From the NCBI GenBank assembly GCA_965222075.1, contig OZ244937.1:4864001-4928000 (forward strand): DNA of 64,000 nt. The letters are read 5' to 3'. The notes under the pieces were generated by a model. That model saw only the letters and a program-made list of their open reading frames with translations, did not search any database and had not been told where the DNA came from. This stretch comes from Candidatus Latescibacterota bacterium. Its GTDB lineage: Bacteria > Latescibacterota > UBA2968 > GCA-2709665. The position numbers and the translations under genes are program-made. Shown here in pieces: positions 37,644 through 55,757 of the stretch (positions within the stretch are counted from its first letter, which is position 1; each line of letters begins with the position of its first letter).

Positions 37644-37865
37644 AGAAAGCCTCCGAGGATAAGGAGGGTGGGTGTTGACCTGGGATTGTCTCACATCGCT
37701 TGGCCTGACCAACGAATCTGCTCATGGGCTGATGCCACAGTATAGCTGTCATGCGCTCACAGTCAACCTTTTTTTGTCCCTTAACTCAGCTGTTCGGGAA
37801 AATTTTTTGTTGATCCGGGTGAAGCAATGTATTAACATTCAGGCCTTAGCATAGCAGATAAACGA

Positions 37866-37965
37866 CCGCCGGAGACCAACTTCCTGGTAGAGGTAGGGCC
37901 GGCGGCCTGCAGGGTGATGCGAGGCGGCTCTACAGTCTTCTCAGATGTCCGATAGAGAAGGCTGT
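37866..37965 (+). ncRNA. Candidate structured cis-regulatory leader, copy 1
   Basis: 68/83 identity to 53504-53586; conserved stems; lies between a promoter-like TTGATC..TAACAT and ATG 38005. Confidence 0.6.
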
Positions 37966-38004
37966 CCGGATGACGATGCCACATTTTTGAAAGGGGGTTC
38001 CTGT

Positions 38005-40083
38005 ATGGGAACGTCTGAGACCTATCGCAGGAAAATAGCCGTTGATCACACGAAGGTCTCAGATGAGGATCTGACCGACTTTCCACTGCTCATTGTCTTA
38101 GAGGACAGCGCGTTGAAGGGTGTGGCTTACGGCGGCGCCCAGCAGAAGGGTGAGGATATCCACTTTATCGGGGCCGACGGCAGTCGGCTGGACGGCGAGA
38201 TCGAGCGTTACGATGCCGCTACAGGCTCTTTGAGGGCGTGGGTGAGGATTCCGAGGCTTTCGCATACTGCGGATACGGAGATTTTCCTCTGTTACGGTCA
38301 GGGGAGCAGTGCTGGTGAGGGGTCGGTTTGGGGCTCGGGCTACCGGCTGGTCCGGCATTCGAATACCGCGCCGGGGGGGCATGAGATCGTTCTCCACGCC
38401 GAGGATTTGAACCTCAGGGATGCGATTACGGTGGAGGCCTGGTTTCACAGTGAAGAGGGGAGGTCAGACGCGTTTCAGGCGCTGGTGTCGAAGTGGTCGC
38501 TGCGTTCTGAGATGGATGCGTTTGAGACTTACGATGCTGAAAATACGGATGGCCTGGACACCAGGGGATTCTTCGGGGCGGTGTGCGACGGGCGGTATAT
38601 CTATTTTTCGCCTCAGTCCAACAGCAGCGGGCGCCACGGGGAGGCGCTGAGGTACGATTCTTATGGCGCATTTACGGATCCGGCGAGTTGGGTGGGGTAT
38701 TCTGCGGGAAGAACGGGGGAGATGAATACCAGAGGCTATTACGGGGCCGTCTACGACGGGCGGTACGTTTACTATATTCCGCGCAGGGACAATGACGGTT
38801 TTCACAACCGGGTGCTGCGGCACGATACGCGAGGAGACTTCAGAAGCCCGGAAAGCTGGTCCGCATTCGATGTAGGACATCAGATCTCCTATCAGAGCGG
38901 CGCGTTCGACGGGCGCTATGTGTACTGGGTTCCGGGGTTTGATGATTACGACCACGGCAACAGCGGCAGGGTGATGCGCTACGATACACAGGGCGCGTTT
39001 GACAATGCCCAGAGCTATGTCCTGTACGATGCGGGAAACACCTCCGGGCTGGGTTCGAAATGCTATGACGGGGCCTGCTTCGACGGGCGATACGTGTATT
39101 TTGCCCCGCTGGACGGCAATGAGAACAAGGGGATTGCGCTCCGGCTTGATACGGAAAGCGATTTCTCCTCGCCGGAGAGCTGGGCGGCTTTCGACGCGAA
39201 GGGGTCGGGGTTAGGCGTGTGTGTGGGCGCGATTTTCGACGGGCAGTATATCTACTATGTGCCTTATGCACACAGCGTGGTGGTTCGTTATGATCCCCAG
39301 GGAGATTTTCAAGACGTGGGAAGCTGGGAAGCGTACGATGCTGCGGATACGTCCGGTCTGGATACAACCGGATACGACGGCGCTGCGTTCGACGGACGCT
39401 ACGTCTATTTTATTCCCTTCCGGTACGGAAAGCAGAAGTTCACAACACCCCATGCCTGCCTGCTGCGTTACGATACGGAGGCGGGTTTCACAGATCCGGC
39501 AGGCTGGGACGCCATGGATGCAGGGGCGCACACGTCCAATCCGGGGGGGTTTAACGGGGGGACGTTTGATGGGCGCTACGTTTATTTTGCTCCCTGGCGG
39601 TTGGGCACCGATGAAAACGGCGGCATTATCAGCCACGGACAGGTGCTGAGGTACGATACCACAGATTCGGATGCTTCGTTTATCCTTAAATACGCGGAGT
39701 GCGGACATAACGGAGGGCTGTGCGCTGCCCTGCCGGGGCCGACGTTTTCGGTGAATACGTCCGAAGGGGTGCGCAATGTGCGGGCAAATCGCTCGCCCGG
39801 TCCGGGCTGGCACCACGTGGCGGGGGTTTACGACGGCGCCCGGCTTACTCTCTACGTAGACGGTGTCCCGGTGAACGAAGCGGAGGGAACGGGTTCCATC
39901 CAGGCCGGGCAGGCAGATGTTGGCATCGGCCGGATTGCGGGCGGGGGGGCGCAGTTCAAAGGGAGGGTATCCGAGGCCCGGATTTCGGATACGGCCAGGT
40001 CCGGGGCGTGGATTCAGACGACGTACCGGAATCTGAAGGCGCCTCATACGTTTGTCAGGGTTGGAGAGGAAGAACAGGAATAG
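38005..40083 (+). CDS. DUF2341 + LamG-like domain with inserted 7-repeat (FDGRY) beta-propeller, paralog 1
   Basis: DFPLL..GEDIHF..LDGEIERYD..AWVRIP; seven DGRY-type repeats; WHHVAGVYDG..LYVDG..EARIS..WI. Confidence 0.75.
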   Translation: MGTSETYRRKIAVDHTKVSDEDLTDFPLLIVLEDSALKGVAYGGAQQKGEDIHFIGADGSRLDGEIERYDAATGSLRAWVRIPRLSHTADTEIFLCYGQGSSAGEGSVWGSGYRLVRHSNTAPGGHEIVLHAEDLNLRDAITVEAWFHSEEGRSDAFQALVSKWSLRSEMDAFETYDAENTDGLDTRGFFGAVCDGRYIYFSPQSNSSGRHGEALRYDSYGAFTDPASWVGYSAGRTGEMNTRGYYGAVYDGRYVYYIPRRDNDGFHNRVLRHDTRGDFRSPESWSAFDVGHQISYQSGAFDGRYVYWVPGFDDYDHGNSGRVMRYDTQGAFDNAQSYVLYDAGNTSGLGSKCYDGACFDGRYVYFAPLDGNENKGIALRLDTESDFSSPESWAAFDAKGSGLGVCVGAIFDGQYIYYVPYAHSVVVRYDPQGDFQDVGSWEAYDAADTSGLDTTGYDGAAFDGRYVYFIPFRYGKQKFTTPHACLLRYDTEAGFTDPAGWDAMDAGAHTSNPGGFNGGTFDGRYVYFAPWRLGTDENGGIISHGQVLRYDTTDSDASFILKYAECGHNGGLCAALPGPTFSVNTSEGVRNVRANRSPGPGWHHVAGVYDGARLTLYVDGVPVNEAEGTGSIQAGQADVGIGRIAGGGAQFKGRVSEARISDTARSGAWIQTTYRNLKAPHTFVRVGEEEQE

Positions 40084-40207
40084 GAGAGGCCGTATGCACA
40101 GTGAAAAGCCCTTACGCGTCCGGAACCGAAAACAGATGTTTATCGATGACAGCGGTTTCTTGAGCGGTTTGGAGTTTTGTGATACAGATTGAGGTTAGAA
40201 CAGGCCT

Positions 40208-42148: not shown

Positions 42149-42244
42149 ACATGGACAGACAGCGAACGGTCGAGGGCAGCAATGGATGGCCAGGATATGG
42201 GGCTGGAGAATGAAACCAGCCCCAGGCTATTTGAAGCGTTTTCT

Positions 42245-43963
42245 ATGAAAATCGGTGGTGTCACGTTCATTCTTTTTCTGCTCCTGGCCATTCTGTCAGG
42301 CTGCTCACCTGATGCGCCCCCGGGTGTTGAGAAGGAAAAGATCGGCGAGGCGGGCGTTGCCGCCGGTCTGGGAACGCCCACCAAAGGCGGCACGTACGTT
42401 CTGGCCTACGGGGCTCCGGCCAACGCGTGGACGCTTGCGCCGATCTGGGATGGCTTCGATTTTCAACTCCTGCTCTACCCGTTTATCTACAATGCGCTGG
42501 CCGAGATGGGCGAAGACCTGCTGGCGTTCAGGCCGGGTCTGGCCGAACGCTGGGAGATCTCCGAAGACGGCCTGGAGGCCACCTTTCACCTGCGCAGGGA
42601 CGTGAAATGGCAGGACGGTCAGCCCTTTACGGCCGAGGACGTGGTGTTCTCAGTGAGGGCGTGGTTCTTAGTTGAGGATGCGTTTATCAACGATCCTCTG
42701 CTGGCGCTCCTGAAGGGCGCGCCGAAGTATCGCGAGGGCAAGGCTGAGGAACTGCCGGGGGTTGCGGTGGTGAGCCGGTACACGGTCCGGTTCTCCTTCG
42801 CACAGTCCAATCCGCTGTTTTTGTACGAGCTGAACCGGCGGCCGATCATGCCGAAGCACCTGCTGGAGGGAAAGATCCGGCGGGGGATGACCTTAGCCGA
42901 TGTGGGCGAGCTCGCGTTCGCCAAAAGGCCGGTGGGCACAGGACCCTTCAGGGTTGCGGCTTTTAAACCGGACGAGTATGTGGAACTCGAAAGGAATCCG
43001 GGTTATTTCCGGGGCGGACCCTATCTGGACAGGATTGTTATCCGTCTGGTTTCGACAGAGACGGTCATCGCGACGGGGCTGGAAACGGGTGAGATCCATT
43101 CGGCAGTGATCTGGAACAAGGAGCACTACCCGCGCCTGTTCTCGCTGGATCAGATCCGGGTCTGGGAAGATCCGGCAGCCACCGGCACTTTCAGTTTGAT
43201 TCCCAACCTGCGCTCCGAACGGAAAGGCCATCCGCTGCACGATGCGCGGTTCCGCAAGGCGATTCTGTATGCGATTCCCCGGAAGAAGATCTGCGATCAC
43301 CTGAGGATGGTCAGCCACCCGGCGCCGAATCAGGCGTATTCTCCCCGGTTTTTAGAGGGCCTTTCGTTGACGGATTACAGGTATAATCCGGAGAAGGCCA
43401 GGGAACTGCTGGCGGAGATGGGTTACGATCCAAAGACGGCGCCGGAGCTTATCTTAGCGCATCTGATTTTCGATAAGAGTCCGGAGCAACCGGCCATGCA
43501 GCAGGCCTTAGCTGAGGTGGGTATTAAGGTGAAACTGCTGGCGCTGGAGCCTCCGGCGGTGGTCAAGATGGTGGCGAATGCCGAGGGATGGGACCTGTTT
43601 CAAAGGTACCTGTCCCAGCACCCTGACCCGGGGTGGATGATCGGCGATCTCATCAAGTGCCAGGGGCCGCCGTGGGAGGTGTGCGGAATGGGGGCGATGT
43701 TCACCTGGAAGCCCACGCGTCGATACGTTGAAATCGAGCAGCTGCAGAGGGCAGAGCTGGATGCAGAGAGGCGGAAGGCGCTGCTGCAGGAGGGGATTCT
43801 GATTCTGGATCGGGAGATGCCCACGATTCCGCTGTGGACCGAGCCGAATGTCTACTTCATCAGCAAACGGGCGCACGGGAAGCACAACGGGGTGTACAAA
43901 TACGGCGCCGAGGTACACGTCAACATCGGGGCGGAGACGTGGTGGCTGGAACCGGAGGGCTAA
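42245..43963 (+). CDS. ABC substrate-binding lipoprotein, family 5 (peptide/nickel type), copy 1
   Basis: Lipobox LSGC; PGLAERWEISEDG..TFHLR.DVKWQDG.PFTAEDV.F; PVGTGPF. Confidence 0.9.
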   Translation: MKIGGVTFILFLLLAILSGCSPDAPPGVEKEKIGEAGVAAGLGTPTKGGTYVLAYGAPANAWTLAPIWDGFDFQLLLYPFIYNALAEMGEDLLAFRPGLAERWEISEDGLEATFHLRRDVKWQDGQPFTAEDVVFSVRAWFLVEDAFINDPLLALLKGAPKYREGKAEELPGVAVVSRYTVRFSFAQSNPLFLYELNRRPIMPKHLLEGKIRRGMTLADVGELAFAKRPVGTGPFRVAAFKPDEYVELERNPGYFRGGPYLDRIVIRLVSTETVIATGLETGEIHSAVIWNKEHYPRLFSLDQIRVWEDPAATGTFSLIPNLRSERKGHPLHDARFRKAILYAIPRKKICDHLRMVSHPAPNQAYSPRFLEGLSLTDYRYNPEKARELLAEMGYDPKTAPELILAHLIFDKSPEQPAMQQALAEVGIKVKLLALEPPAVVKMVANAEGWDLFQRYLSQHPDPGWMIGDLIKCQGPPWEVCGMGAMFTWKPTRRYVEIEQLQRAELDAERRKALLQEGILILDREMPTIPLWTEPNVYFISKRAHGKHNGVYKYGAEVHVNIGAETWWLEPEG

Positions 43964-43977
43964 GGGTGAGATTCAGG

Positions 43978-45678
43978 ATGAAGATTAGCGCGGTGGTATG
44001 GACGCTTTCTCTGTTCTTAATCGCGCTCTCGGGTTGTGCATCAGAACCGTCCCGGGAGGAGCGGGCTGGCGTTGTCGACCGCCCGAAGATGCCCGTTAAA
44101 GGCGGCACGTACGTGATGGCCTACCACGGGCCGCGCCACGCCTGGACGCTTTCGCCCTTCTGGGACGGGTTCGGGCATCAGATTGTGATCAACCAGTTCC
44201 ACTACAATACGCTGGCCGAGCTGGATGAGGATATGCAGACGTTTGCGCCGGGTCTGGCCGAACGCTGGGAGGTTTCCAACGACAGGAGAGAGGTGACCTT
44301 TCACCTGCGCAGGGACGTGAAATGGCAGGACGGTCAGCCCTTTACGGCCGAGGACGTGGTGTTCACGGTGCGGGCGTGGTTCTTGGTTACAGACGCCTAT
44401 GTCGATGAGCCGATTCTGACGTTGCTGAAGGGCGCGAGGGCGTATTTCGAGGGTGCGACGGAAAAGCTGCCGGCGGTTGCGGCGCTGGACCGGCATACGG
44501 TCCGGTTTACTTTTGCACAGCCCAGCCCGCTGTTTATGGACGAGCTGAACCGGCGGCCGATGATGCCCAAACACCTGCTGGAGGGCAAGGTCCGGCGGGG
44601 GATGACCTTAGCGGATGCAGGTGCGTTGGATTTTGCTAAAAAGCCGGTGGGAACCGGTCCTTTCAAGGTGGTCGATTACAAGGCGGACGAGTATATCCTT
44701 TACGAGAAGAATCCGCACTATTTCCGGGGAGAACCCTATCTGGATAAACTTATCGTGCGGCTGGTGTCGTCGGAAACGCCGATTGCCACCGGTTTGGAGA
44801 CGGGGGAGATTCACGCGGCGGTGATGTGGAACAAGGAGCACTTTCCACGCCTGTTTTCGCTGGATCACCTCACGGCGTGGGAGGATTCGATCGCGTTTGG
44901 TTCGTTCAGTCTGATGCCCAACATGCGCCCCGAGCGCAAAGACCATCCGCTGCACGATGTGCGGTTCCGGAAGGCGATGCTGTACGCGATTCCCCGGAAG
45001 AAGATTGCGGAGAACCTGCGGGTGGTAAGCCGTGGCGTGCCCAACCAGGTCTATTCACCCCGGTTTTTGGAAGGACTGCCGCTGACGGATTACAGGTACA
45101 ATCCGGAAAAGGCCAGGGAACTGCTGGCGGAGATGGGCTACGACCCGGAGGGGGCGCCGGAGCTTATCTTGGCGCACCTGATTTTCGACAAGAGTCCGGA
45201 GCAGCCGGCGATGCAGCAGGCCTTAGCTGAGGTGGGCATCAAGGTGAAGCTCCTGGCGGTTGAGACCGCAGGGGCGATCAGCCTGGTGGCGAACGCCGAG
45301 GGGTGGGACCTGTTTCAAAAGTACTCGCCGCAGTATCCGGATGCGGGATGGATGGTCAGCGATATGCTGAGGTGCTCCGGTCCGCCGTGGGAGCCGTGCG
45401 GGTGGGGAGCCATGCACACGTGGAAGCCGCCACCACGTTATGCGGAGATCGAAAAATTACAGCGGCAGGAGCTGGATCCGGAGAGGCGCAAGGCGCTGCT
45501 GCAGGAGGCGATTTTGATCCTGGATGAGGAGGTACCGGCGCTTCCGCTTTGGACGGAACCGAACGTCTATTTTATCAACAAACGGGTGCACGGGATGCAC
45601 AACGGGGTGTACAAATACGGGGGCCGCGTTCAGATTTACGTTGGGGCGGAGACATGGTGGCTGGAGCCGGAAGGTTGA
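43978..45678 (+). CDS. ABC substrate-binding lipoprotein, family 5, copy 2 (tandem paralog)
   Basis: Same motifs; long identical stretches with copy 1. Confidence 0.9.
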   Translation: MKISAVVWTLSLFLIALSGCASEPSREERAGVVDRPKMPVKGGTYVMAYHGPRHAWTLSPFWDGFGHQIVINQFHYNTLAELDEDMQTFAPGLAERWEVSNDRREVTFHLRRDVKWQDGQPFTAEDVVFTVRAWFLVTDAYVDEPILTLLKGARAYFEGATEKLPAVAALDRHTVRFTFAQPSPLFMDELNRRPMMPKHLLEGKVRRGMTLADAGALDFAKKPVGTGPFKVVDYKADEYILYEKNPHYFRGEPYLDKLIVRLVSSETPIATGLETGEIHAAVMWNKEHFPRLFSLDHLTAWEDSIAFGSFSLMPNMRPERKDHPLHDVRFRKAMLYAIPRKKIAENLRVVSRGVPNQVYSPRFLEGLPLTDYRYNPEKARELLAEMGYDPEGAPELILAHLIFDKSPEQPAMQQALAEVGIKVKLLAVETAGAISLVANAEGWDLFQKYSPQYPDAGWMVSDMLRCSGPPWEPCGWGAMHTWKPPPRYAEIEKLQRQELDPERRKALLQEAILILDEEVPALPLWTEPNVYFINKRVHGMHNGVYKYGGRVQIYVGAETWWLEPEG

Positions 45679-45736
45679 GTGGGAACTGCAAATTGGTTTT
45701 GGCGACCCCCATCCCGGGGTACGGCATGCCATGCCC

Positions 45737-46585
45737 TTACATATCTTCCACCCAGTGGCGGTAGAGGGGCTTTACATCGTCGGGCAGGGACTCGTAGACA
45801 TCCCTTTTTACGGGCGTGGATTCGTAGTTTTTCTCTCCTGTTTCAACCACCATGCGGGTGTGCTCCGGGGCGCCGATCATGGTGGGATTCAGGTTCAGCC
45901 ACCAGGGCGCATAGCGGACGATGAGGGCTACGCGCGGCCTGTCACTGCGGTTGGGCGCGACCGCGTGCCAGAGCCGGCTGTCGTAGAGAAGCACGCTGCC
46001 TGCGCTGCCGGAGACCTGGATCTCAGCCGGATGTGGGGCATCGGCGTCAACGCCCTCCATCCCTCCTGCCGAGGGATTGTTGTTCATCCGGTGGCTGCCG
46101 GGCAGGACGAACGTGCCGCCCGTTTGGGGACTGAAGGGTGAGAGCATCCAGATGGTGGACAGGTGCATGATCGCGTCTGGGTAGGGCGCCGGGATGCGCG
46201 ACGCGTTGGTCTGATTGAAGGGCCAGTCCGCATGCCAGTAGCCGCGCTCGTTTCCGGGATGGTTGATAACACAGTCGGTGCAGGAGATCCGCACGTATGG
46301 ACCGAACACGGCCTCGGCGATGTCCAGAATTCGCCGGTCTGCCAGATAGGGGGCGAAGGTCTGAGTGTGGTTGATGACCTGATTCAGGTTTCCGACGCCT
46401 TTGACGCCTACACGGTGACCGCGAGCTCTGGTCTTTTCCAGTTTCGCCCGCGATTTTTCATCATGGGCCGCCTGCGCTGCCACCACGCTGTCCCGCAGGT
46501 TGTCCATCCTGTCTTCGGAGATGACGCCTTCGATCACGCAAAACCCGTTCATCTCCAACTGGAGCGATTTTTCACTGACAGACAT
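45737..46585 (-). CDS. Phytanoyl-CoA dioxygenase family Fe(II)/2OG oxygenase
   Basis: WHADWP (HxD), GGTFVLPGSH, GSVLLYDSRLWHA, R.ALI. Confidence 0.9.
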   Translation of the reverse strand: MSVSEKSLQLEMNGFCVIEGVISEDRMDNLRDSVVAAQAAHDEKSRAKLEKTRARGHRVGVKGVGNLNQVINHTQTFAPYLADRRILDIAEAVFGPYVRISCTDCVINHPGNERGYWHADWPFNQTNASRIPAPYPDAIMHLSTIWMLSPFSPQTGGTFVLPGSHRMNNNPSAGGMEGVDADAPHPAEIQVSGSAGSVLLYDSRLWHAVAPNRSDRPRVALIVRYAPWWLNLNPTMIGAPEHTRMVVETGEKNYESTPVKRDVYESLPDDVKPLYRHWVEDM

Positions 46586-46677
46586 TGTTCCCTCTGCGGT
46601 TTTCAGGCTCGTAGCGTGTTGACCGTTTCCCGTTTGATAGTCAATATATCACGGCACAACGGAGAGTCAAGCATTTA

Positions 46678-46731
46678 ATGTGCGTCAACATTATCGGCGC
46701 GGAGACCTGGTGGATGGAGCCGCAGCTTTAG
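46678..46731 (+). pseudogene. C-terminal relic (17 codons) of a third substrate-binding protein
   Basis: MCVNIIGAETWWMEPQL* versus VNIGAETWWLEPEG* and IYVGAETWWLEPEG* at the ends of the two SBPs. Confidence 0.75.
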
Positions 46732-46741
46732 GGGGGGTGTT

Positions 46742-47713
46742 GTGAACCACTTTTTAATTCGACGGTTGCTGGTGCTGATTCCGGTTTTTCTGGGGGTTAC
46801 GTTTCTGAATTTCGTGCTGATGAATCTGCTGCCGGGAGATGCGGTGGACGCGATGATCAACCCCCGGGACTCGCAGCGCTGGACGCCGGAACAGATCCAG
46901 GCGAGGCGCGTTTCGCTGGGCCTGGACAAGCCCTGGTCCGTGCGATATGTGATCTGGCTGAAGGAGCTGGGGAAAGGGAACCTGGGGTATTCTTACTTCA
47001 CCAAGAAGCCGGTGATCGAGGAGCTGATCGCGCGTATGGGAGCGACGCTGAAGCTCCAGGTCGTTTCGTTCACGGTGGCCATCATATTTGGTATTGCGCT
47101 GGGTGTGTATTCCGCGCTCAGACAGTATTCTTTTTTTGATTACCAGTTCACGCTGTTCACCTATATGGGGATTTCCATCCCCACGTTCTTTTCCGCGCTG
47201 GTGATTATCTACGTGTTCGCCGTGAACCTGCGCTGGTTTCCCACCTCCGGCCTGCGGGTATACGGTGGGGAATCGTCCATTCTGGAGCAGCTGTGGTATA
47301 TGGCGCTGCCCACTTTTACCTTAGCCATCGGGAGCTGGGCAACGGTTATGCGCTTCTGTCGCACGAGCATGCTGGAGGTTTTGCAACAGGACTTTCTGAG
47401 GACCGCGCGGGCCAAGGGGCTGGCGAATCGCTCGGTGATCCTCCGCCACGCGCTGCGCAATGCGCTGCTACCGGTGATTACGATTATCGGGTTGAGCATC
47501 CCCAGACTCATTACCGGCTCCATCCTGGTTGAGACGGTTTTCGACTGGCCGGGGATGGGACAGTACAGCGTGCTGTCTATCGGACGGCGAGACTACCCCG
47601 TTTTGATGGGGGTGACGGTGATTTTCTCACTGGTTGTCCTGTTGAGTAATCTGTTGACGGATATTGCTTATGCGGTGGCCGATCCACGCATTCGGTACGA
47701 CCAGGCGAGGTAG
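46742..47713 (+). CDS. ABC permease, OppB/DppB-like
   Basis: LIRRLL, LPGDAV, RTSMLEVLQQDFLRTARAKGL..HALRNA EAA loop. Confidence 0.92.
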   Translation: MNHFLIRRLLVLIPVFLGVTFLNFVLMNLLPGDAVDAMINPRDSQRWTPEQIQARRVSLGLDKPWSVRYVIWLKELGKGNLGYSYFTKKPVIEELIARMGATLKLQVVSFTVAIIFGIALGVYSALRQYSFFDYQFTLFTYMGISIPTFFSALVIIYVFAVNLRWFPTSGLRVYGGESSILEQLWYMALPTFTLAIGSWATVMRFCRTSMLEVLQQDFLRTARAKGLANRSVILRHALRNALLPVITIIGLSIPRLITGSILVETVFDWPGMGQYSVLSIGRRDYPVLMGVTVIFSLVVLLSNLLTDIAYAVADPRIRYDQAR

Positions 47714-47732
47714 GTTTTTTGGGGGGAGTTGG

Positions 47733-48671
47733 ATGGAGACAGAGCCGCGCAAAGATCAGATGGCGCAAATAGATTTACACACAACGGAAGCCGAATCGGT
47801 CCGGGAGAAGGACTATTCCCTCGCGGCCTTGACGTGGCGGCGGTTTCTGCGTCACAGGATGGCGGTGGTTTCGTGCGGTTTGCTCGGGCTGGTGGTCCTG
47901 ATGGCCGTTCTGGCCGATTTCATCGCGCCCCGGGGGCCATACGCGGTGGACTACGAACAGGTTCTGGCTCCTCCCGGCGCCGAACACACTCTGGGGACGG
48001 ACCGGGTGGGGCGAGACGTGTGGGCCAGGCTGTGCGTGGGCTCCAGGGTGTCTCTGGCGGTGGGGCTGGTGGCGGTGGTGATCGCACAGTTTCTGGGCAT
48101 TGTTTTCGGTTCTCTTGCGGGCTACTACGGGCGTATGGCCGACAGTGTGATTATGCGGTTGACCGATGTGATGCTCTGCTTTCCCTGGCTGATCCTGATG
48201 CTGGTGGTTGCGGCTGCCTTTGGGCCGGGGCTTTCGCGCACGATGCTCGTGATCGGGTTGATCAGCTGGCCCAGGCTGGCCCGGATTGTGCGCGCGGAGT
48301 TTCTTTCTTTGAGGGAGCGGGATTTTGTTCTGGCTGCATCCTGCCTCGGGGCGTCCGGCGGCAGGTTGATTCTGTATCACTTTTTTCCCAATGTGGTGCC
48401 TTATATGATTGTAGAGGCGACCTTTGGCATGGCCGACGCGATTTTGAGTGAGGCCGCGTTGAGCTTTCTGGGCATGGGGGTGGCGGTTCCCACGCCCAGT
48501 TGGGGCAATATGCTCCGGGATGCCCAGTCTCTCCATGTGCTGACCAACGCCCCCTGGTTCTGGCTGCCGCCGGGCATTGCGATTTCGCTGACGGTTCTGG
48601 CCATCCAGTTTATCGGCGACGGGCTCCGGGATGCGCTGGATCCCCGGGCGCTGGTCGAGTCGAGGAGGTAA
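47733..48671 (+). CDS. ABC permease, OppC/DppC-like
   Basis: WRRF.RH, LGTDRVGRDV, EAALSFLG.G..PSWG, GDGLRDALDP. Confidence 0.92.
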   Translation: METEPRKDQMAQIDLHTTEAESVREKDYSLAALTWRRFLRHRMAVVSCGLLGLVVLMAVLADFIAPRGPYAVDYEQVLAPPGAEHTLGTDRVGRDVWARLCVGSRVSLAVGLVAVVIAQFLGIVFGSLAGYYGRMADSVIMRLTDVMLCFPWLILMLVVAAAFGPGLSRTMLVIGLISWPRLARIVRAEFLSLRERDFVLAASCLGASGGRLILYHFFPNVVPYMIVEATFGMADAILSEAALSFLGMGVAVPTPSWGNMLRDAQSLHVLTNAPWFWLPPGIAISLTVLAIQFIGDGLRDALDPRALVESRR

Positions 48672-50647
48672 TGACACAAAGCCGCCCATCCCCATCCGCT
48701 CCACACGATGCTGCGCCGCCGAGCAGGCGTATTCTGACGGGCAGGGCGACGGCGGTGGGCCTGATGGCTGTGGTGACGGTTACGCTGGCCGGTCCTTATT
48801 CGGAATGGGTCGTCCGTTCTTCTTATATGACGACCAATTATTTTCCGCTGGGGCTGGCTTTTGTTTTTATTTTTTTGGTGGCCGCGCTCAATCCTTTGCT
48901 GAAGCTGTTCGGGCGCTGTTACGGGCTTGGGGGAGACGAGCTGGGCGTGGTCTATATGATGCTGATTGCAGCGGTGTCCGTGCCGACGTACGGGATTACG
49001 GGGTACGTGATTTCGATTGCGGCGTCGCCCTTTTATTACGCTACCACGGAGAACGGGTGGGCGGAGTATCTGCATCATGATATTCCCCACTGGGTCGTTC
49101 CGGGAGGCGGGCCCGAGGTGGCCTGGTTTTTTGAGGGGCTGCCTGCTGGAGCGTCGATTCCCTGGCGGATCTGGCTTGCGCCCCTGTTCTGGTGGGGGAC
49201 GCTAATTGCGGCCACGCTGGCGCTGTGTGTCTGCCTGGTGGCGATTTTCCGGAAGCAGTGGGTGGAGCAGGAGCGGCTGAGTTTTCCGGTGGTGCACGTG
49301 CCTCTGGCGATGATGGAGGGGGCCGAGGACGAGCGGCTTTTGCCCCGGTTTATGCGCAGTCGGCTGTTCTGGGTCGGGTTTGGGATTGCGGCTTTCAAGA
49401 TCATCTGGAATATTCCAGGCTATTTCAACAGCGGATGGCCCGGCCTGCCGCCGGTTATTTTGCGGATCCCTCAGGGACAGATTTTCCCGGGGATTTCGAC
49501 GATTCTCTCACTGCCCTTAGTAGGGGTTACCTATTTTGCGAATGTGGATGTGATTTTCAGCATCTGGGTGTTTTACCTGGTCAACCTGGCGGAGGTGACG
49601 CTGTTCAACCGGACCGGCTTCAGCATCGGCCCTCCGGAGATGCATTCCATCCGGCCTTCGGCGCTGTCCTGGCAGGCGTTTGGAGCGTTTGCGGCGATTG
49701 TGCTGGGCGGAATCTGGGTGGCCCGGGAGCACCTGCGGGAGGTGCTGCACAAGGCGTTTTTGAACGATGCTTCCGTGGACGATGGGGAAGAGATTCTGTC
49801 CTATCGGACAGCGGTTTTCGGGTGCCTGGCGTCGGTTGTTTACATTTTGTTGTGGTTGCACGCGATCGGGATTGCGCTTTCCATAGCGATGCTACTGGTG
49901 TATGCGGTCGTTACCGTTTACCTGGGGCTGACCCGGATGGTAATCGAGGGGGGGCTGATGTTCGTGCTGGGACCGCTGGTGCCCCAGGCATTTCCCATGC
50001 ATATGGTGGGTCCGGCGGCGCTGAGCGGGTCTACGATGACGGGGCTGGCGCTTTCTTACGGGTGGGTGTGCGATCCGATTATCGCTTTTTTGCCCTGCGG
50101 GGCCAATGCCGCGAAGGTGCACAGCGACCGACGGTTTCCCAGGGGGACCTACCTGCGGGCGGTTGCGCTGGCGCTGGGGGTGAGTCTGGCGCTTTCTTTC
50201 TGGTTTTCGCTGAAGCTGGGGTACGGGTTCGGGAGCTACAACTTCGGGGATTTTGTATTCCGGCGGGGAGGGCAGGTGCCCTTCGATACGGTGATCAGCA
50301 AGATGAAGGCGGCGGAGGGGTTCACGTTCAACCGGTTTGCGTTTCTGGGGTTGGGCGCGCTGGCCACGTTCGGGCTGACGTATCTGCGGCACCGGTTTGC
50401 GTGGTGGCGGCTGCACCCGATCGGGTTTGCGGTGGCGCTGACGTCGCCGGTGCGGTGGACGGTGCTGTCGTTTTTTGTGGTGTGGGCCGTGAAGGTGCTG
50501 ATCGACCGGCTGGGGGGATTGATTCTGTACAATCGGGCCAGGCCGTTTTTCATCGGGTTGGTTGTGGGGCATTTTGCGGCCGCAGGGATTTCTTTTGTGG
50601 TGGATGTGATCTGGTTCCAGGGCCAGGGACACATTCTTTATTTTTAG
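48671..50647 (+). CDS. DUF6785/DUF6784-like membrane protein, paralog 4, overlapping the OppC-like stop (TAATG)
   Basis: YYATTENGW, FRKQWVEQERLSFP, SYRTAV, WWRLHPIGF, RPFFIGLVVG. Confidence 0.75.
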   Translation: MTQSRPSPSAPHDAAPPSRRILTGRATAVGLMAVVTVTLAGPYSEWVVRSSYMTTNYFPLGLAFVFIFLVAALNPLLKLFGRCYGLGGDELGVVYMMLIAAVSVPTYGITGYVISIAASPFYYATTENGWAEYLHHDIPHWVVPGGGPEVAWFFEGLPAGASIPWRIWLAPLFWWGTLIAATLALCVCLVAIFRKQWVEQERLSFPVVHVPLAMMEGAEDERLLPRFMRSRLFWVGFGIAAFKIIWNIPGYFNSGWPGLPPVILRIPQGQIFPGISTILSLPLVGVTYFANVDVIFSIWVFYLVNLAEVTLFNRTGFSIGPPEMHSIRPSALSWQAFGAFAAIVLGGIWVAREHLREVLHKAFLNDASVDDGEEILSYRTAVFGCLASVVYILLWLHAIGIALSIAMLLVYAVVTVYLGLTRMVIEGGLMFVLGPLVPQAFPMHMVGPAALSGSTMTGLALSYGWVCDPIIAFLPCGANAAKVHSDRRFPRGTYLRAVALALGVSLALSFWFSLKLGYGFGSYNFGDFVFRRGGQVPFDTVISKMKAAEGFTFNRFAFLGLGALATFGLTYLRHRFAWWRLHPIGFAVALTSPVRWTVLSFFVVWAVKVLIDRLGGLILYNRARPFFIGLVVGHFAAAGISFVVDVIWFQGQGHILYF

Positions 50648-50735
50648 GCTCAGAATACAGGTTTTGATTGCCCAGGTCTGCTGGATGGCCTATCTTGGAA
50701 ATGATCGGACAGGTTGTCTTTTTTAGAGGACTGCC

Positions 50736-52520
50736 ATGCAAAGGACTGACAAACAGGAAGCCAGGCTCCGGGAGATAGACCGCCGGTACCGGGCAATCGT
50801 ACGGATCGTTTCGGCGCTGAATACGGACCGTCCGATTGAGGATGTGGTGCAGGAGATAGGGAAAGTACTGCAAGCGCTGATTCCCTGCGACCGCTTCAGC
50901 CTGGGGTTGGTCTCCTGGAACCGCTGGTATTTTCTGGAGGACGGCCGTCTCACTTCACAGAACTTCTCCTTTCCCCTTGTTTCGGACAACTCCGCCAGCG
51001 AATGGGTGATCCACAACCGCCGGCCCCTGCTTCGTCGGGATATCTCGAAGGAACACCGGTTCAAGCACGATGTGATCAGGATGGAGCAGGGGGACCGTTC
51101 GGATCTGATCGTGCCGCTGGTTGTGGACGGCGAGGTGATGGGCACCTTCAATTTCACCAGCCGGGTGTCGAAACGCTACGACGAGGGGTGTTTAGAGGGC
51201 GCTCAGTCGGTGGCCGATGCGGTCGCCGTGGCCGTCAAGCAGTTTCAGATCCGGCTGGAGACGGAGGCCATCCGGGAGATTTCCGATGCGGTGTTGAGGC
51301 CGCTGGAACTGGACGAAATCCTGAAGATGGTCCTGACGCATATCCAGTCTCAGGGTTACGACCGGGTGAGGCTATACCTGTACGACCAGGCGCGGCATGC
51401 GATGGTAGGGGCTCTGCTGGTGGGGATGGAATACGAGCCTGCGTCTATTGTGTACCCTTTGAAAAACGATCCGTATTCGAAACAGACACTGGCTTCCGAT
51501 CGCCCCCGGATCTATCGGGCCGGGACGCCGGAATATGAGGAGGTGGTCCGTAGAAGGAGGGAGGTAGGTGAATTCCTCTATTCGAATCCTGATATTCTGG
51601 TGTGGTGCGAAATGCCCTTGAAGGTTGTCGAAGAGGGTCAGGAGGTTATTGTCGGAAAGATCGCTCTGGACAATAGCCTCAGCAGGCGCCCCCTGGCGCA
51701 GGAACGTCTGGATCGGTTGATGGTGTATGCCTCCCAGGCGGCCATTGCCATCCGGCACGCGCAATTGTACCGGCAGATGGCCGAGCAGGTGGAGAGCCGT
51801 ACGGCCGAGTACAAGCAGGCGGAGGAACGGCTTTTGGAGTATCAGGCGCAGCTCCGGTCTTTGGCGTCCGAATTGACATTGATCGAAGAGCGGGAACGGC
51901 GTCGCCTTGCAACGGATTTGCACGACCGGATCGGACAGACCCTGGCCGTGTCCAAGATCAAATTGGGCGCGCTGGGGACGTCGGCTGCCTCCACCGATTT
52001 TGCCGGACCTCTGGACGAGGTCCGCGAGCTTATCGACCAGACGATTCAGGATACGCGGTCGTTGACTTTTGAGCTGAGCCTGCCGGTGCTTTACGAACTG
52101 GGGTTTAAGGCCGCAATGGAGTGGCTTGCCGAGCAGGTCCAGGAACAGCACGGCGTTCGGGTTGAACTGGAGAGCGAGGGGCAGGTCCGGCTGTCGGACG
52201 AGGGCCTCCGGGTGCTTCTCTTCCGGGCGGTGCAGGAGCTGCTGGTCAATGTTGTAAAGCACGCTCAGGCGCATACCGCAAAGGTTTCCGTTCGGGAAGA
52301 TGGGGACAGCATACGAATCGAGGTTGAAGATGACGGCATTGGATTTGAGCCCTCCAAAGCAGGCAGAAACGGTGGATTCGGCTTTTTCAGCGTCCGGGAG
52401 CGATTGCGTTTTCTGGGAGGCGATTTTGACGTTGAATCCGAGCCCGGCCGCGGGACCCGGGCCGTGCTGGTGGCGCCGCTGAAGGGCAGTGGGGCGTCCC
52501 CGGAGGGTGGCGTGAGGTGA
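50736..52520 (+). CDS. Cytoplasmic sensor histidine kinase (2 GAF + HisKA_3 + HATPase)
   Basis: EERERRRLATDLHDRIGQ, QELL.NVVKHA, DDGIGF, GFGF; no transmembrane segments. Confidence 0.9.
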   Translation: MQRTDKQEARLREIDRRYRAIVRIVSALNTDRPIEDVVQEIGKVLQALIPCDRFSLGLVSWNRWYFLEDGRLTSQNFSFPLVSDNSASEWVIHNRRPLLRRDISKEHRFKHDVIRMEQGDRSDLIVPLVVDGEVMGTFNFTSRVSKRYDEGCLEGAQSVADAVAVAVKQFQIRLETEAIREISDAVLRPLELDEILKMVLTHIQSQGYDRVRLYLYDQARHAMVGALLVGMEYEPASIVYPLKNDPYSKQTLASDRPRIYRAGTPEYEEVVRRRREVGEFLYSNPDILVWCEMPLKVVEEGQEVIVGKIALDNSLSRRPLAQERLDRLMVYASQAAIAIRHAQLYRQMAEQVESRTAEYKQAEERLLEYQAQLRSLASELTLIEERERRRLATDLHDRIGQTLAVSKIKLGALGTSAASTDFAGPLDEVRELIDQTIQDTRSLTFELSLPVLYELGFKAAMEWLAEQVQEQHGVRVELESEGQVRLSDEGLRVLLFRAVQELLVNVVKHAQAHTAKVSVREDGDSIRIEVEDDGIGFEPSKAGRNGGFGFFSVRERLRFLGGDFDVESEPGRGTRAVLVAPLKGSGASPEGGVR

Positions 52521-52566
52521 GTGCCGGGACGCGCCCGGATGACCACAGGATCGCACAGATTCCGTT

Positions 52567-52632
52567 TCAGGTATTTCGAAGCCCGGAATCGGGGATTTCC
52601 CCGGTTGCGCTTTTATTTATGGGGCGTACATT
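52567..52632 (+). promoter_or_regulatory. Operator + sigma70-like promoter, copy 1 (upstream of the response regulator)
   Basis: TCAGGTATTTCGAAG-N5-AATCGGGGA-TT-TCCCCGGTT overlapping TTGCGC, then N16 and TACATT. Confidence 0.7.
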
Positions 52633-52685
52633 GGCAATCTCTTGGATATTTTTGGCGTGCGACGGCAGACTACAGGAGGTGCGAG

Positions 52686-53339
52686 GTGAGGATCAGGATT
52701 CTCCTGGCCGATGATCACAAGATCGTGCGGGACGGCCTTCGCGCCCTGATCGAGCAGCAGGCCGACATGGCGGTGGTGGCCGAGGCGGAGGACGGGCGAA
52801 CGGCGGTGGGGCTGGTGCAGGATCTGTCGCCGGATGTGGTTGTGATGGATATCGGCATGCCGGATTTGAACGGGATCGAGGCCACCCGCCAGATTATCGC
52901 CAAGACCTCCGGCGTGAAGGTGATCGCCCTGTCGATGCATTCCGACAGGCGGTTTGTGGCGGGTATGCTCGGCGCAGGGGCGTCGGGTTATCTGCTGAAA
53001 GACGGCGCGTTCGAGGAACTGGCCGATGCGGTTCGCCTGGTGTTTGCAGATCAGACTTACCTGAGCCCCGGGATAACCGGCGTTGTGATCGAAGATTACG
53101 TACATCACGTGTCGGCGGCCCAAGACACGGTTTTGGCCGCGCTGACAGCCAGGGAACGCGAGGTGCTTCAGCTCCTGGCGGAAGGCAGATCGACCAAGCA
53201 GATTGCTTCGGATCTGGAGGTGAGTGTGAAGACGGTTGAGACGCATCGCCAGAAGGTTATGCAAAAACTAAATTTACACAGTATTGCCGATCTAACCAAA
53301 TACGCCATTCGCGAAGGGCTGACCACCCTCGAACGCTGA
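52686..53339 (+). CDS. NarL/LuxR family response regulator
   Basis: LADDH, VMDIGMP, GYLLK, LT.REREVL.LLAEG.S.KQIA..L.VS.KTVETHR; GTG 52686 after AGGAGG. Confidence 0.93.
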   Translation: MRIRILLADDHKIVRDGLRALIEQQADMAVVAEAEDGRTAVGLVQDLSPDVVVMDIGMPDLNGIEATRQIIAKTSGVKVIALSMHSDRRFVAGMLGAGASGYLLKDGAFEELADAVRLVFADQTYLSPGITGVVIEDYVHHVSAAQDTVLAALTAREREVLQLLAEGRSTKQIASDLEVSVKTVETHRQKVMQKLNLHSIADLTKYAIREGLTTLER

Positions 53340-53373
53340 CGCGCACCGGCGAAATCGTCTCATTGACGCCGGC

Positions 53374-53438
53374 TCAGGTATTTCGAAGTCAAAAATCAGG
53401 AATTTCCTGATTGCGCTTTTTTTTTTGTGATATAGATT
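53374..53438 (+). promoter_or_regulatory. Operator + sigma70-like promoter, copy 2 (upstream of the DUF2341/TonB locus)
   Basis: TCAGGTATTTCGAAG-N5-AATCAGGAA-T-TTCCTGATT (perfect palindrome) overlapping TTGCGC, then N16 and TAGATT. Confidence 0.7.
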
Positions 53439-53503
53439 GAATGTGTTATCTTACGTTATGTTATCTTATGAAATATAATGATTTACTGAAAAAATTCGTA
53501 AAG

Positions 53504-53586
53504 CCGCTGGTTACCAAACTTCCTGGTAGAGGTAGGGCTAACGGCTCGCAGGGCGATGCGAGAAGGCTCTACAGTCCCCTCACATG
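53504..53586 (+). ncRNA. Candidate structured cis-regulatory leader, copy 2
   Basis: 68/83 identity to 37866-37947; TATAAT at 53474 upstream. Confidence 0.6.
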
Positions 53587-53627
53587 CACAGATTTAATCA
53601 GCAGCCGATGTGAAGAAAGGAGCGGGC

Positions 53628-55757
53628 TTGGGCGGATTGTTTGAGAAGCGGCTGGTGGTCGATCACACGCGGGTTTCGGGGGATGGTCTGGCCGGTCTGC
53701 CTTTGCTCATTTCACTCGAAGATGAGGATTTGAAGGATAAGACGTACGGCGGCCAGGTGGCACAGGCGGGCGGTCAGGATATCCGGTTTATCGGCGCCGA
53801 TGGAGAGAGGAAATTCGGCCACGAGATTGAAGCCTACGACCCGGCAGAGGGTGCGCTGAGAGCCTGGGTGCGCGTTGAAACGCTTTCCGGGTCGGCCGAT
53901 ACGGAGCTGTATCTGCGCTGCGGAGATCCAGGGTGTGAACCCCAGCAGAACCGGAAGGGGGTGTGGGATGCGGATTACCGGCTGGTGGTCCACGATGCCG
54001 CATCGCCTGAGGACGCGACCGCCAATCCCACCGGTGCAGCCGCCGAAGAGGCGTCGGACGGGCAGCGCTGGGCGAGGGTCGCGCATGCCCAGAAGCTGAA
54101 CGTGCGCGATGCGATTACCGTAGAGGCGTGGGTGGAGAGCGATGAGGCGCGGGCCGAGGCGATGCAGTCGGTGGTGTCCAAGTGGACGCCCAGGACGCGC
54201 TTCGACCTGTTCGACGCCTACGACGCCGGCAATACCGACGGATTGGAGACCAAGGGGTTTTTCGGCGCGGTGTTCGACGGGCGTTATCTCTACTTTTCCC
54301 CCCAGCACAACAGGCAAGGCCGTCACGGTCAGGCGCTACGATACGATACGCAGGGGGCGTTCAAAGATCCGGAAAGCTGGGCGGGGTACGATGCGGGCCA
54401 CACCGACGGGCTGAATACGAAGGGGTACTACGGGGCGGTTCACGCGGGGGATTACATTTACTATATCCCGCGCACCGACGGAGAGGTGATGCACAGCCGG
54501 TTTCTGCGGTACGACCGGGGGGGGGATTTCAGGAGCCCGGAGAGCTGGAGCGCATACGATATCGGGCATCCGATTTCCTATCAAAGCGCGGCGTTCGACG
54601 GGCGCTACATCTATCTGGTTCCAGGCTCCGAGCAGGCAGGTGGTGGCAGCGGGAAGGTGGTGCGCTACGATACGCAGGGGGCGTTCAAAGATCCGGCCAG
54701 TTACACGACATACGACGCTGCAAACACATCGGGGCTGGATACGAGGTCGTACGACGGGGCGGTGTTTGACGGCCGATACGTCTATTTCTCTCCACTGGAC
54801 GCCGATGGTGTGGTGTTGCGCTACGATACGGAAGGGGATTTTGAGGATGCGGACAGCTGGGTCGCTTACGGCGCAAAGAAAGCGAGCCTGAAGCGCTGCG
54901 TGGGGGCGGTGTTCGACGGCCGATATGTCTACATTGTGCCCTACGGCCAGTCCGACCAGGCGGTGCGCTACGATACGGCGGGCGCGTTTACTGACGAGAA
55001 CAGCTGGGAGGTTTTTTACCTTCTCGACGTGCCCGGCCTGAATACGCTGGGGTTTGACGGTGCGTTTTTCGACGGGCGCTACATTTACTACAACCCGTAC
55101 TGGGACGAGACGAGCGATGCGGATGAGACCTTCCACGGCGTGGTGGTGCGCTACGATACGCAGGGCGCGTTCACCGATCCGGAAAGCTGGGACTGCGCCG
55201 ACGCCGGTTTGACGGACGGCCTCAAGACCGTGGGGTTCAACGGGGGCGCAACCGACGGCCGGTTCCTCTATTTTGGCGCGTGGATGGACAGCAGAGACGA
55301 GACGGGCAAGATTCTCGGCCACGGCCGGGTGCTGCGCTACGATGCGGTGGGCGACCAGGGCATGTTCAGCCTTCGGTACTGCGATTTGGGACACAACGGC
55401 GGCCTGTGCGCCGCCCTGCCGGGCGCGCGGTTTCTTGTGAATACGGAGAAAGGGGCCATCAGCATCGCCGCCAACCGCAGGCCGGAGCCGGGGCGGCATC
55501 ACCTGGCGGGGGTGTACGACGGAAAGACGATCCGGCTGTACATCGACGGCGAGCTTGTGAACGAGCAGGCGGGCTCGGGTGCGATTGTGAACAACCGGGA
55601 GGATGTGGCGGTCGGCCGGATCCTGAATGGCCTGGGCGGATTTGTGGGCCGGGTTAACGAGGTGCGGATCTCCGGGTGCGCAAGAAGCGGGGATTGGATT
55701 CGCACCCAGTATGCCAACCAGAGCGATCCGGCCCGGTTTTGCCGCATCGCACCGTGA
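53628..55757 (+). CDS. DUF2341 + LamG-like domain with inserted 7-repeat (FDGRY) beta-propeller, paralog 2
   Basis: Collinear with 38005-40083; TTG 53628 after AAAGGAG. Confidence 0.75.
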   Translation: MGGLFEKRLVVDHTRVSGDGLAGLPLLISLEDEDLKDKTYGGQVAQAGGQDIRFIGADGERKFGHEIEAYDPAEGALRAWVRVETLSGSADTELYLRCGDPGCEPQQNRKGVWDADYRLVVHDAASPEDATANPTGAAAEEASDGQRWARVAHAQKLNVRDAITVEAWVESDEARAEAMQSVVSKWTPRTRFDLFDAYDAGNTDGLETKGFFGAVFDGRYLYFSPQHNRQGRHGQALRYDTQGAFKDPESWAGYDAGHTDGLNTKGYYGAVHAGDYIYYIPRTDGEVMHSRFLRYDRGGDFRSPESWSAYDIGHPISYQSAAFDGRYIYLVPGSEQAGGGSGKVVRYDTQGAFKDPASYTTYDAANTSGLDTRSYDGAVFDGRYVYFSPLDADGVVLRYDTEGDFEDADSWVAYGAKKASLKRCVGAVFDGRYVYIVPYGQSDQAVRYDTAGAFTDENSWEVFYLLDVPGLNTLGFDGAFFDGRYIYYNPYWDETSDADETFHGVVVRYDTQGAFTDPESWDCADAGLTDGLKTVGFNGGATDGRFLYFGAWMDSRDETGKILGHGRVLRYDAVGDQGMFSLRYCDLGHNGGLCAALPGARFLVNTEKGAISIAANRRPEPGRHHLAGVYDGKTIRLYIDGELVNEQAGSGAIVNNREDVAVGRILNGLGGFVGRVNEVRISGCARSGDWIRTQYANQSDPARFCRIAP

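Follow-up and report, generated by a model that had tools for sequence, protein, structure and literature searches.

A conserved leader module at a Latescibacterota outer-membrane locus, possibly a sense-embedded derivative of an undescribed small-RNA family

Two paralogous genes behind a repeated leader module

The window, i.e. the whole 64,000-nt stretch of Candidatus Latescibacterota DNA that was analysed, contains two paralogous genes coding for proteins with DUF2341 and Laminin_G_3 domains (DUF2341-LamG), 54% identical to each other and each preceded by one copy of a ~90-nt module. The gene behind copy 1 heads a DUF6785/SBP_bac_5/ABC permease cluster. The gene behind copy 2 is the first of an outer-membrane locus and is followed, in order, by genes for an OMP beta-barrel, a CarboxypepD_reg/Plug TonB-dependent receptor, an 803-aa protein with no family, and a PorV-like protein. 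The features of the two leaders are the following:

37810..37838, + strand: sense promoter-like boxes of copy 1, TTGATC-17-TAACAT, conserved in genomes G003 and G021 (three genomes)
37862..37950, + strand: copy 1 of the module, with helix P1 formed by CCGCCGG (37866-72) and CCGGCGG (37899-905)
38005..40083, + strand: paralogous DUF2341 + Laminin_G_3 gene, 692 aa
53394..53412, + strand: terminator-like hairpin with T-run, 3' of a response-regulator gene
53444..53479, + strand: sense promoter-like region of copy 2, with TGTTATCTTA repeats at 53444-53 and 53459-68 and a -10 box TATAAT at 53474-79
53500..53590, + strand: copy 2 of the module, scoring 107.2 bits with covariance model R1 and 83.8 bits with model R2
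53504..53545, + strand: P1 domain of copy 2, in which GCCGCUGG (53504-11) pairs with CUAACGGC (53538-45)
53546..53563, + strand: P2 hairpin, CUCGCA-GGGCGA-UGCGAG
53574..53588, + strand: C/U-rich tail GUCCCCUCACAUGCA, 3' strand of P3 or of a downstream pairing with AUGUGA (53608-13)
53589..53627, + strand: remaining leader, with the SD AAAGGAG at 53616-22
53628..55757, + strand: DUF2341 + Laminin_G_3 gene, 709 aa

The hairpin with T-run at 53394..53412 marks the start of a new transcription unit. The copy-2 gene starts at a TTG (53628) that is in frame and agrees with the paralogue, only 39 nt behind the end of the element. P1 of copy 2 has one C/A mismatch and one G-U pair, and encloses a tip hairpin (ACCA 53513-16 / UGGU 53524-27) and a block that is invariant between copies 1 and 2. 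The 3' strand of P2 has an alternative partner in the tail, forming P3 (53557-68 with 53574-85), for which 9 of 12 pairs are present in copy 2 and all 12 in G003_3a, one of the copies of G003.

Copies 1 and 2 share 82% identity over 83 nt (E 5e-16) and are the sole close matches in the 5.36-Mb genome; they have in common identical blocks of 23 nt and ~24 nt, while their flanks are unalignable. A 20-mer of copy 2, searched with up to three mismatches, matched only the sites of the two copies, as compared with 0 of 100 shuffles, so that this two-copy repeat is far beyond chance.

Other features of the surroundings are worth recording. Upstream of copy 2 lie a GAF/HisKA_3 kinase gene (50736-52520) and then the gene of a NarL-type response regulator (52521-53339), and a ~80-nt segment made of a hairpin and a T-run is found twice (52551-52633 and 53358-53439, 73-74% identity), between the kinase and regulator genes and again 3' of the regulator gene. 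The copy-2 DUF2341-LamG gene has about six internal repeats spaced by 147-324 nt (window 54239-55353; RYDT...FDGRY.Y protein motifs), so that the middle of the protein, which has no match in Pfam, may be a repeat or propeller-like domain. In the copy-1 cluster, two SBP_bac_5 paralogues are 78% identical over 300 nt (42349-42648 and 44064-44363), and a contig of RNA library X15 connects 42580 to 44296, skipping 1715 nt; this jump is probably due to assembly across the paralogues.

Covariation, fold and conservation

A sequence-only reading of the locus had proposed that copy 2 is a riboswitch-like leader with three helices and a loop able to mask the SD. We confirmed that copy 1 exists (37862-37950) and that all segments are in place: UUACCA (53511-16) and UGGUAG (53524-29); CUCGCA (53546-51), GGGCGA and UGCGAG (53558-63); UCACAU (53580-85) and AUGUGA (53608-13); the SD AAAGGAG (53616-22) and the UUCCU (53520-24) suggested to pair with it; and the AGGG (53534-37) and CCCU (53577-80) of a possible pseudoknot.

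We then relied on close homologues of the two copies, present in G003 (three copies, including a tandem pair spaced by 160 nt) and in G021 (one full and two truncated copies), i.e. six full sequences of the copy-1/copy-2 subtype. The statement that most differences between the copies preserve pairing does not hold among these close homologues: the three proposed helices (16 pairs) have no double-sided changes, and the shuffle control gives the same value as that observed. The hairpin described as extended (UUACCA/UGGUAG) is present as a sequence, but its two outer pairs form in only three and two of the six sequences. A helix that had not been proposed, P1 (53504-11/53538-45), shows double-sided changes in six of its nine pairs, and is the sole covarying helix.

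The fold of the element is not unusually stable, with z = -0.05 for 53500-53635 and z = -1.18 for copy 1 with respect to shuffles. Masking of the SD by the element does not exceed chance either. The mean unpaired probability from SD to start in copy 2 is 0.43 vs 0.54 +/- 0.17 with the element shuffled, a value as low being obtained in 30 of 100 shuffles, and in copy 1 it is 0.45 vs 0.36 +/- 0.09. Alternative pairings near the copy-2 SD do exist, with SD accessibility inside the shuffle range and no U-run after the element.

The element is conserved above silent codon sites, with identities of 0.92 vs 0.81, 0.89 vs 0.71, 0.83 vs 0.69 and 0.94 vs 0.89 with respect to the 4-fold sites of the adjacent gene; the first two values, which compare the window's own genome (G000) with G003, are clearly above the 4-fold sites. 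Copy 1 of G021 has changes inside otherwise invariant blocks. The copy-1 type lacks an opposite-strand promoter (see below) in three genomes, and its P1 changes are still compensated. P1 of copy 2 is imperfect, with a 5' strand like that of G003_3a and a 3' strand like that of G003_3b, the other G003 copy of this kind. What stands of the riboswitch-like leader is therefore a conserved, selected and structured element, and not its identity as a riboswitch.

Distribution of related modules

The covariance search that the sequence-only reading had recommended recovered 62 distinct family members in the order and class. Model R1, built from the five closest sequences, gave weaker matches in the order and class; nine of its 38 matches (L033, L034, L036, L037, L038, L044, L053, L054 and L041) were removed by eye as chance matches in coding sequence or as truncated, and model R2 was built from 29 sequences. 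With R2, matches at E<=1e-3 were obtained in 28 of the 53 genomes available for the order, and the window's own genome has five members. Those of them that carry the opposite-strand promoter box described below lie at G000:C1:5322610-5322695 and 4434152-4434234, and a further one, at G000:C1:62456-62659 including its surroundings, lies behind an aptamer. There are in total 65 matches in 60 loci, and the counts given below for 62 members take out only the three exact duplicates.

Across the 62 members, all nine P1 pairs show double-sided changes and 91% of cells are paired, the stem sequence itself being fairly conserved. The region enclosed by P1 and the second hairpin vary among subgroups, and the core is not kept across the family. 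Joint alignment folding, which had also been suggested as a check, does return a common structure, but one limited to P1 (RNAalifold, 29 members, both strands).

We could not find any gathering-level match to Rfam 15 in the window, nor any match at E<=1 in 36500-54000, including to c-di-GMP-I. E-value scans of 38 family loci returned only adjacent c-di-GMP-I-like aptamers, one tRNA, and chance-level matches to RybB (23.6 bits) and U6atac. A 19-mer of the invariant block occurs in eight stretches of genome contigs, of which the two in G003 are real and six are coding with unrelated flanks, and the palindromic P1 pattern occurs in at least 124 stretches from many phyla, approximately the number expected by chance according to our own estimate. 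The core pattern gave four stretches among metagenome contigs, none of which is a member (partial matches to R1 of at most 13.2 bits). Finally, the portions of the literature consulted on c-di-GMP riboswitches, TonB-dependent receptors and antisense, and on small RNAs of Latescibacteria, contain nothing on the element. Copy 2 thus belongs to an undescribed family of ~90-nt RNA modules made of two hairpins.

Promoter and terminator signals on the opposite strand

Reading the flanks of the family members showed that TTGTCAAG recurs ~30 nt beyond the module and that P1 is immediately preceded by an A-run. Read on the opposite strand, these become a -35 box and a U-run following a hairpin. An exact TTGACA is present on the opposite strand in 42 of 62 members (27-37 nt beyond the module in 41, and at 56 nt in one) and upstream on the sense strand in only two, leaving 20 members with no exact TTGACA. 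The spacer of the opposite-strand promoter is 17 nt in 26 of 39 cases, and, apart from one outlier, 4-14 nt lie between the end of the -10-like (TAnnnT-like) box and the module. Promoter matches of at least 9/12 occur in 35/62 members on the opposite strand vs 3/62 on the sense strand (8.8% in shuffles). A U-run of at least four follows P1 on the opposite strand in 48/62, while a sense-strand T-run of five or more follows the module in only three. For L032, a promoter scanner reported on the opposite strand both a terminator and TTGACA-17-TAAAAT with a TG (11/12), and for L047 it reported TTGACT-17-TATATT, missing a weaker box at L188. A promoter at a fixed distance, together with a P1 hairpin followed by a U-run, gives the typical member the anatomy of a small-RNA gene of ~95-105 nt on the opposite strand. 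No conserved small ORF is present on that strand among 29 members, either by frame or by start, and 13 of them have no ORF of at least 14 aa.

The strand tests based on pairing are mixed. There are 33 P1 pairs valid on the opposite strand only (A-C as written) vs 11 sense-only G-U pairs, six of which come from the subtype of copy 2. Of 29 members, 17 have a P3 domain that is more stable on the sense strand and 11 one that is more stable on the opposite strand, and copy 2 as a whole reaches -30.9 kcal/mol on the opposite strand vs -26.4 on the sense strand (4.5 better).

Four tandem members from two genomes (G024 and G025) depart from this arrangement, having no matching opposite-strand promoter:

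L025:2401-2489 and 2568-2655, sense-oriented: tandem modules of G024/G025
L026:2453-2541 and 2620-2707, sense-oriented: tandem modules of G024/G025

A sense-strand TTGACA-17-GTATAT, identified by eye, precedes the first L025 copy, and two of the four modules end in a sense-strand U8 run (3' of L025:2568 and L026:2620). Such sense signals in the absence of the opposite-strand promoter indicate that the module is used in both senses somewhere. The tandems adjoin a copy of the opposite-strand type (1501-1589) and a transposase-like HTH ORF, and have in common with this neighbouring copy an identical block of 22 nt, which would make their RNAs complementary.

Signals and transcription of the window copies

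We could not find an opposite-strand promoter at copies 1 and 2 by either scanner or box scoring. The best match for copy 2 is 1+4 of 12, located 47 nt away, and copy 1 has degenerate boxes. Alignment with copy 3b of G003 showed that copy 2 is missing a 49-nt segment; in G003_3b this segment includes the -10 box of the minus strand as well as one TTGACA box out of two. The A-run before P1, corresponding to the opposite-strand U-run, is three in both copies. G021, which belongs to the same genus, keeps a TTGTCAAG, and the 3' two-thirds of the module are lost in front of the orthologous gene. An inspection by eye for sigma-54-type boxes on the opposite strand of copy 1 gave none.

On the sense strand, copy 2 is preceded by CTTACG-18-TATAAT (3+6 matches), although a strict scanner for sigma-70 promoters reported none on either strand there, and no room exists for a promoter between either module and the start codon. 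Loss of the antisense promoter and of most of the U-run, together with the presence of sense boxes, makes it most likely that the two copies are transcribed only as 5' UTR. RNA run X16 has a contig spanning 53532-53772 that links copy 2 to the coding sequence, at a depth of 3.2 and unstranded. Four runs (X14-X17), labelled sponge metagenome, cover the copy-2 gene and leave the copy-1 gene (37924-39795) and many other parts uncovered; these are low-depth contigs from one study that could contain DNA, and they give no strand, ends or level. A contig of X14 may start near 53503, judging from bin depths. Location of copy 2 in the 5' UTR of the DUF2341-LamG gene is thus very probable, given the 39 nt to the start codon, the TATAAT 20 nt upstream of the module, and the X16 contig. 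Sense-only transcription of copy 2, the production of the family RNAs and any effect on expression are inferences.

The TGTTATCTTA direct repeats are 15 nt apart and overlap the -35 region of the copy-2 promoter, and TGTCATCTTA occurs twice at the equivalent site in G021. These repeats are likely an operator of the NarL-type regulator.

Neighbouring genes and c-di-GMP-I-like aptamers

In 57 of 62 members the module is followed by an ORF on the sense strand, so that the predicted small RNA lies head-to-head with it. From these 57 predicted ORFs (five members have none) we picked by eye one per near-identical group and searched the resulting 26 proteins against Pfam. Seven are TonB-dependent receptors and three are OMP beta-barrels, in addition to an MMPL protein, an Ig/dockerin protein and two Peptidase_MA/PD40 proteins. 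Others are cytoplasmic or of other kinds (oxidoreductase, acyl-CoA dehydrogenase, methyltransferase, PhyH, nucleotidyl transferase, transposase-like HTH), and six have no family. The predicted small RNAs do not preferentially pair with the start region of their own neighbour: among the 41 members in which both an exact box and an SD with start could be recognised, the cognate region beats at least 90% of non-cognate ones in three only, with no enrichment.

Four of the 38 loci scanned have a c-di-GMP-I-like aptamer and a terminator upstream in the same sense. This is a separate element that adjoins the module, once in the window's genome, and it was not found before copy 1 or copy 2:

L187:1384-1465 (G000:C1:62456-62537): c-di-GMP-I-like aptamer in the window's genome
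L055:1647-1772, - strand: c-di-GMP-I-like aptamer
L022:1814-1956, - strand: c-di-GMP-I-like aptamer
L058:1621-1702, - strand: c-di-GMP-I-like aptamer

The RF03167 scores are 60.7, 42, 39.2 and 34.8 bits, i.e. three of the four are below the gathering score of 59, and the aptamer of the window's genome also scores 33.7 bits with RF01051. Each has a CCGCAC...GUGCGG hairpin with a U-run, and they lie directly 5' of family modules and of TonB-dependent receptor or DUF2341-LamG genes. Were these aptamers functional, transcription in the sense direction would have to pass through the module to reach the gene, which would make the small RNA antisense to the leader.

Possible origin and role of the module

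Taken together, these data lead us to regard copy 2, with moderate confidence, as a sense-embedded derivative of an undescribed small-RNA family, and not as a ligand sensor. The typical module would be a stand-alone small-RNA gene on the strand opposite to that of the sequence-only reading, with a sigma-70-type promoter (TTGACA, ~17 nt, TAnnnT-like box). Its transcript, of ~95-105 nt, would start with the P3 hairpin, followed by a short linker, the long P1 hairpin and a U-run, where P1 and the U-run would serve as an intrinsic terminator. The genes that they face head-to-head would mostly code for TonB-dependent receptors, porin-like barrels and further exported proteins, and some of the small RNAs would be antisense to leaders that open with a c-di-GMP-I-like aptamer. 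The two window copies would be derived forms, in which the antisense promoter is gone, the U-run is reduced to three, and sense boxes of their own are present; most likely they make up the first ~100 nt of the 5' UTRs of the DUF2341-LamG genes. Copy 2 would then be a constitutive structured leader, whose 5'-end hairpins could affect mRNA stability or processing, and the leader module could offer a pairing surface to antisense RNAs of the same subtype where these are still made, as may be the case for copies 3a and 3b of G003. We could not find any partner small RNA with long complementarity in the window's genome, and therefore a pairing role cannot explain conservation there.

The element does resemble a riboswitch in its very probable 5' UTR position, in the covarying helix that closes it beside invariant unpaired blocks, and in the alternative pairings near the SD. 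Unlike riboswitches, it has no curated match in Rfam, a single covarying helix, a variable core, heterogeneous neighbouring genes, and an opposite-strand promoter and terminator in most of its relatives. On these grounds, and given the loss of two-thirds of the element in G021, a metabolite-sensing riboswitch is not supported. A broader possibility, which we regard as unlikely, is that of a sense cis-regulatory leader with a specific partner, be it an aptamer or a site for a protein or another RNA. P1 would then enclose a binding core consisting of the invariant blocks, and translation would depend on whether the tail pairs in P3 or in the AUGUGA stem next to the SD. Consistent with such a leader are the very probable 5' UTR position, the mutually exclusive pairings (P2 vs P3, tail vs AUGUGA), and the fact that P1 covaries between subtypes while the 23-nt and ~24-nt blocks are identical in front of proteins that are only 54% identical, invariant blocks beside a covarying P1 being also what one expects of an aptamer or protein site. 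A copy-1 hairpin between tail and downstream sequence, followed by eye, stays paired through a sense-strand G-U, and three more lineages keep the module in the absence of the opposite-strand promoter (the copy-1 type; L058/L187, where a c-di-GMP-I-like aptamer precedes it; and the tandems of G024/G025). However, besides the missing Rfam family and the core that is not kept family-wide, compensatory changes are absent from the helices first proposed, fold and SD masking fall within shuffles, downstream genes range from receptors to cytoplasmic enzymes, the metagenome scan gave no more copies, and in G021 two-thirds of the element are missing in front of a preserved orthologous gene. A two-sense device is likewise unlikely: one strand would give a terminator-ended small RNA and the other a structured leader segment, replaced in G024/G025 by an independent sense RNA that has a promoter and a terminator of its own. 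Sense/antisense pairs of paralogous copies would then link outer-membrane uptake loci, with c-di-GMP riboswitch control of the sense transcript at some of them; pairing would take place through the blocks that copies 1 and 2 share unchanged, and in G003 the 3a and 3b RNAs would pair with the copy-1-type leader.

The module may also have no function left in the window. Recombination between tandem copies would have removed the promoter, leaving a remnant carried along in the leader until it decays, as could be suggested by damage to the copy-2-type small-RNA gene in both species of the genus (promoter lost in G000, body lost in G021), by the mismatched P1 of copy 2 with its 5' strand resembling G003_3a and its 3' strand G003_3b, and by copy 1, whose identity between G000 and G021 is near that of silent sites (0.94 vs 0.89), with the G021 changes hitting invariant blocks. 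This is quite unlikely, since the element exceeds 4-fold-site identity in all four comparisons and the promoter-less copy-1 type keeps compensated P1 changes in three genomes. It is very unlikely that an opposite-strand small RNA is still transcribed at copy 2, from a promoter departing from the sigma-70 consensus, and acts as a cis-antisense regulator of the DUF2341-LamG mRNA: the promoter segment is absent (best match 1+4 of 12, 47 nt off, and a negative scanner), the U-run beside the stem is only three long, and three of four substitutions in the 5' strand of P1 with respect to G003_3b pair on the sense strand only. In its favour are the 92% identity of copy 2 to G003_3b, which has TTGACA-16/17 and a -10-like box, the UUUAC...UUUUUU that still follows the P1 hairpin on the opposite strand, and the better folding on that strand (-30.9 vs -26.4 kcal/mol).

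Enterobacteria have envelope small RNAs such as MicF, which is divergent from ompC, and RybB. The typical family member is similar to both in being ~90 nt long and non-coding, with its own promoter and an end made of a hairpin and a U-run, beside or head-to-head with outer-membrane protein genes. It differs in belonging to another phylum and in having no homology, the family shows no preferential pairing with neighbour starts, and the window copies are promoter-less; the match to RybB (RF00110) at L047 alone, of 23.6 bits against a gathering score of 40 (E 0.56), covers the terminator hairpin only. A further parallel comes from cis-antisense RNAs in 5' UTRs and antisense-acting riboswitches, as treated in PMC9943018, as at the loci with an upstream aptamer a riboswitch-controlled sense transcript would cross a predicted opposite-strand RNA gene; by comparison with these, the window copies have no antisense promoter.

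The riboswitch assignment is hence replaced by a testable picture, in which a lineage that has been little studied has a small-RNA family not described before. Provided that its RNAs are made, they would be candidate regulators of envelope and uptake functions in bacteria that have no genetic system. The promoter-less yet conserved leader copies would represent a natural case of a small-RNA gene that became part of an mRNA. More generally, strand assignment needs checking before a conserved 'leader' is taken as a cis element.

The two truncated modules of G021, L010 (G021:C56:1288-1360) and L012 (G021:C94), are both interrupted right after ...CCTGGTA. Behind a copy-2-type promoter, one of them is joined to a GntR-like gene, and the other precedes the orthologous DUF2341-LamG gene. 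The shared breakpoint would fit either recombination within the apical loop or an artefact of assembly.
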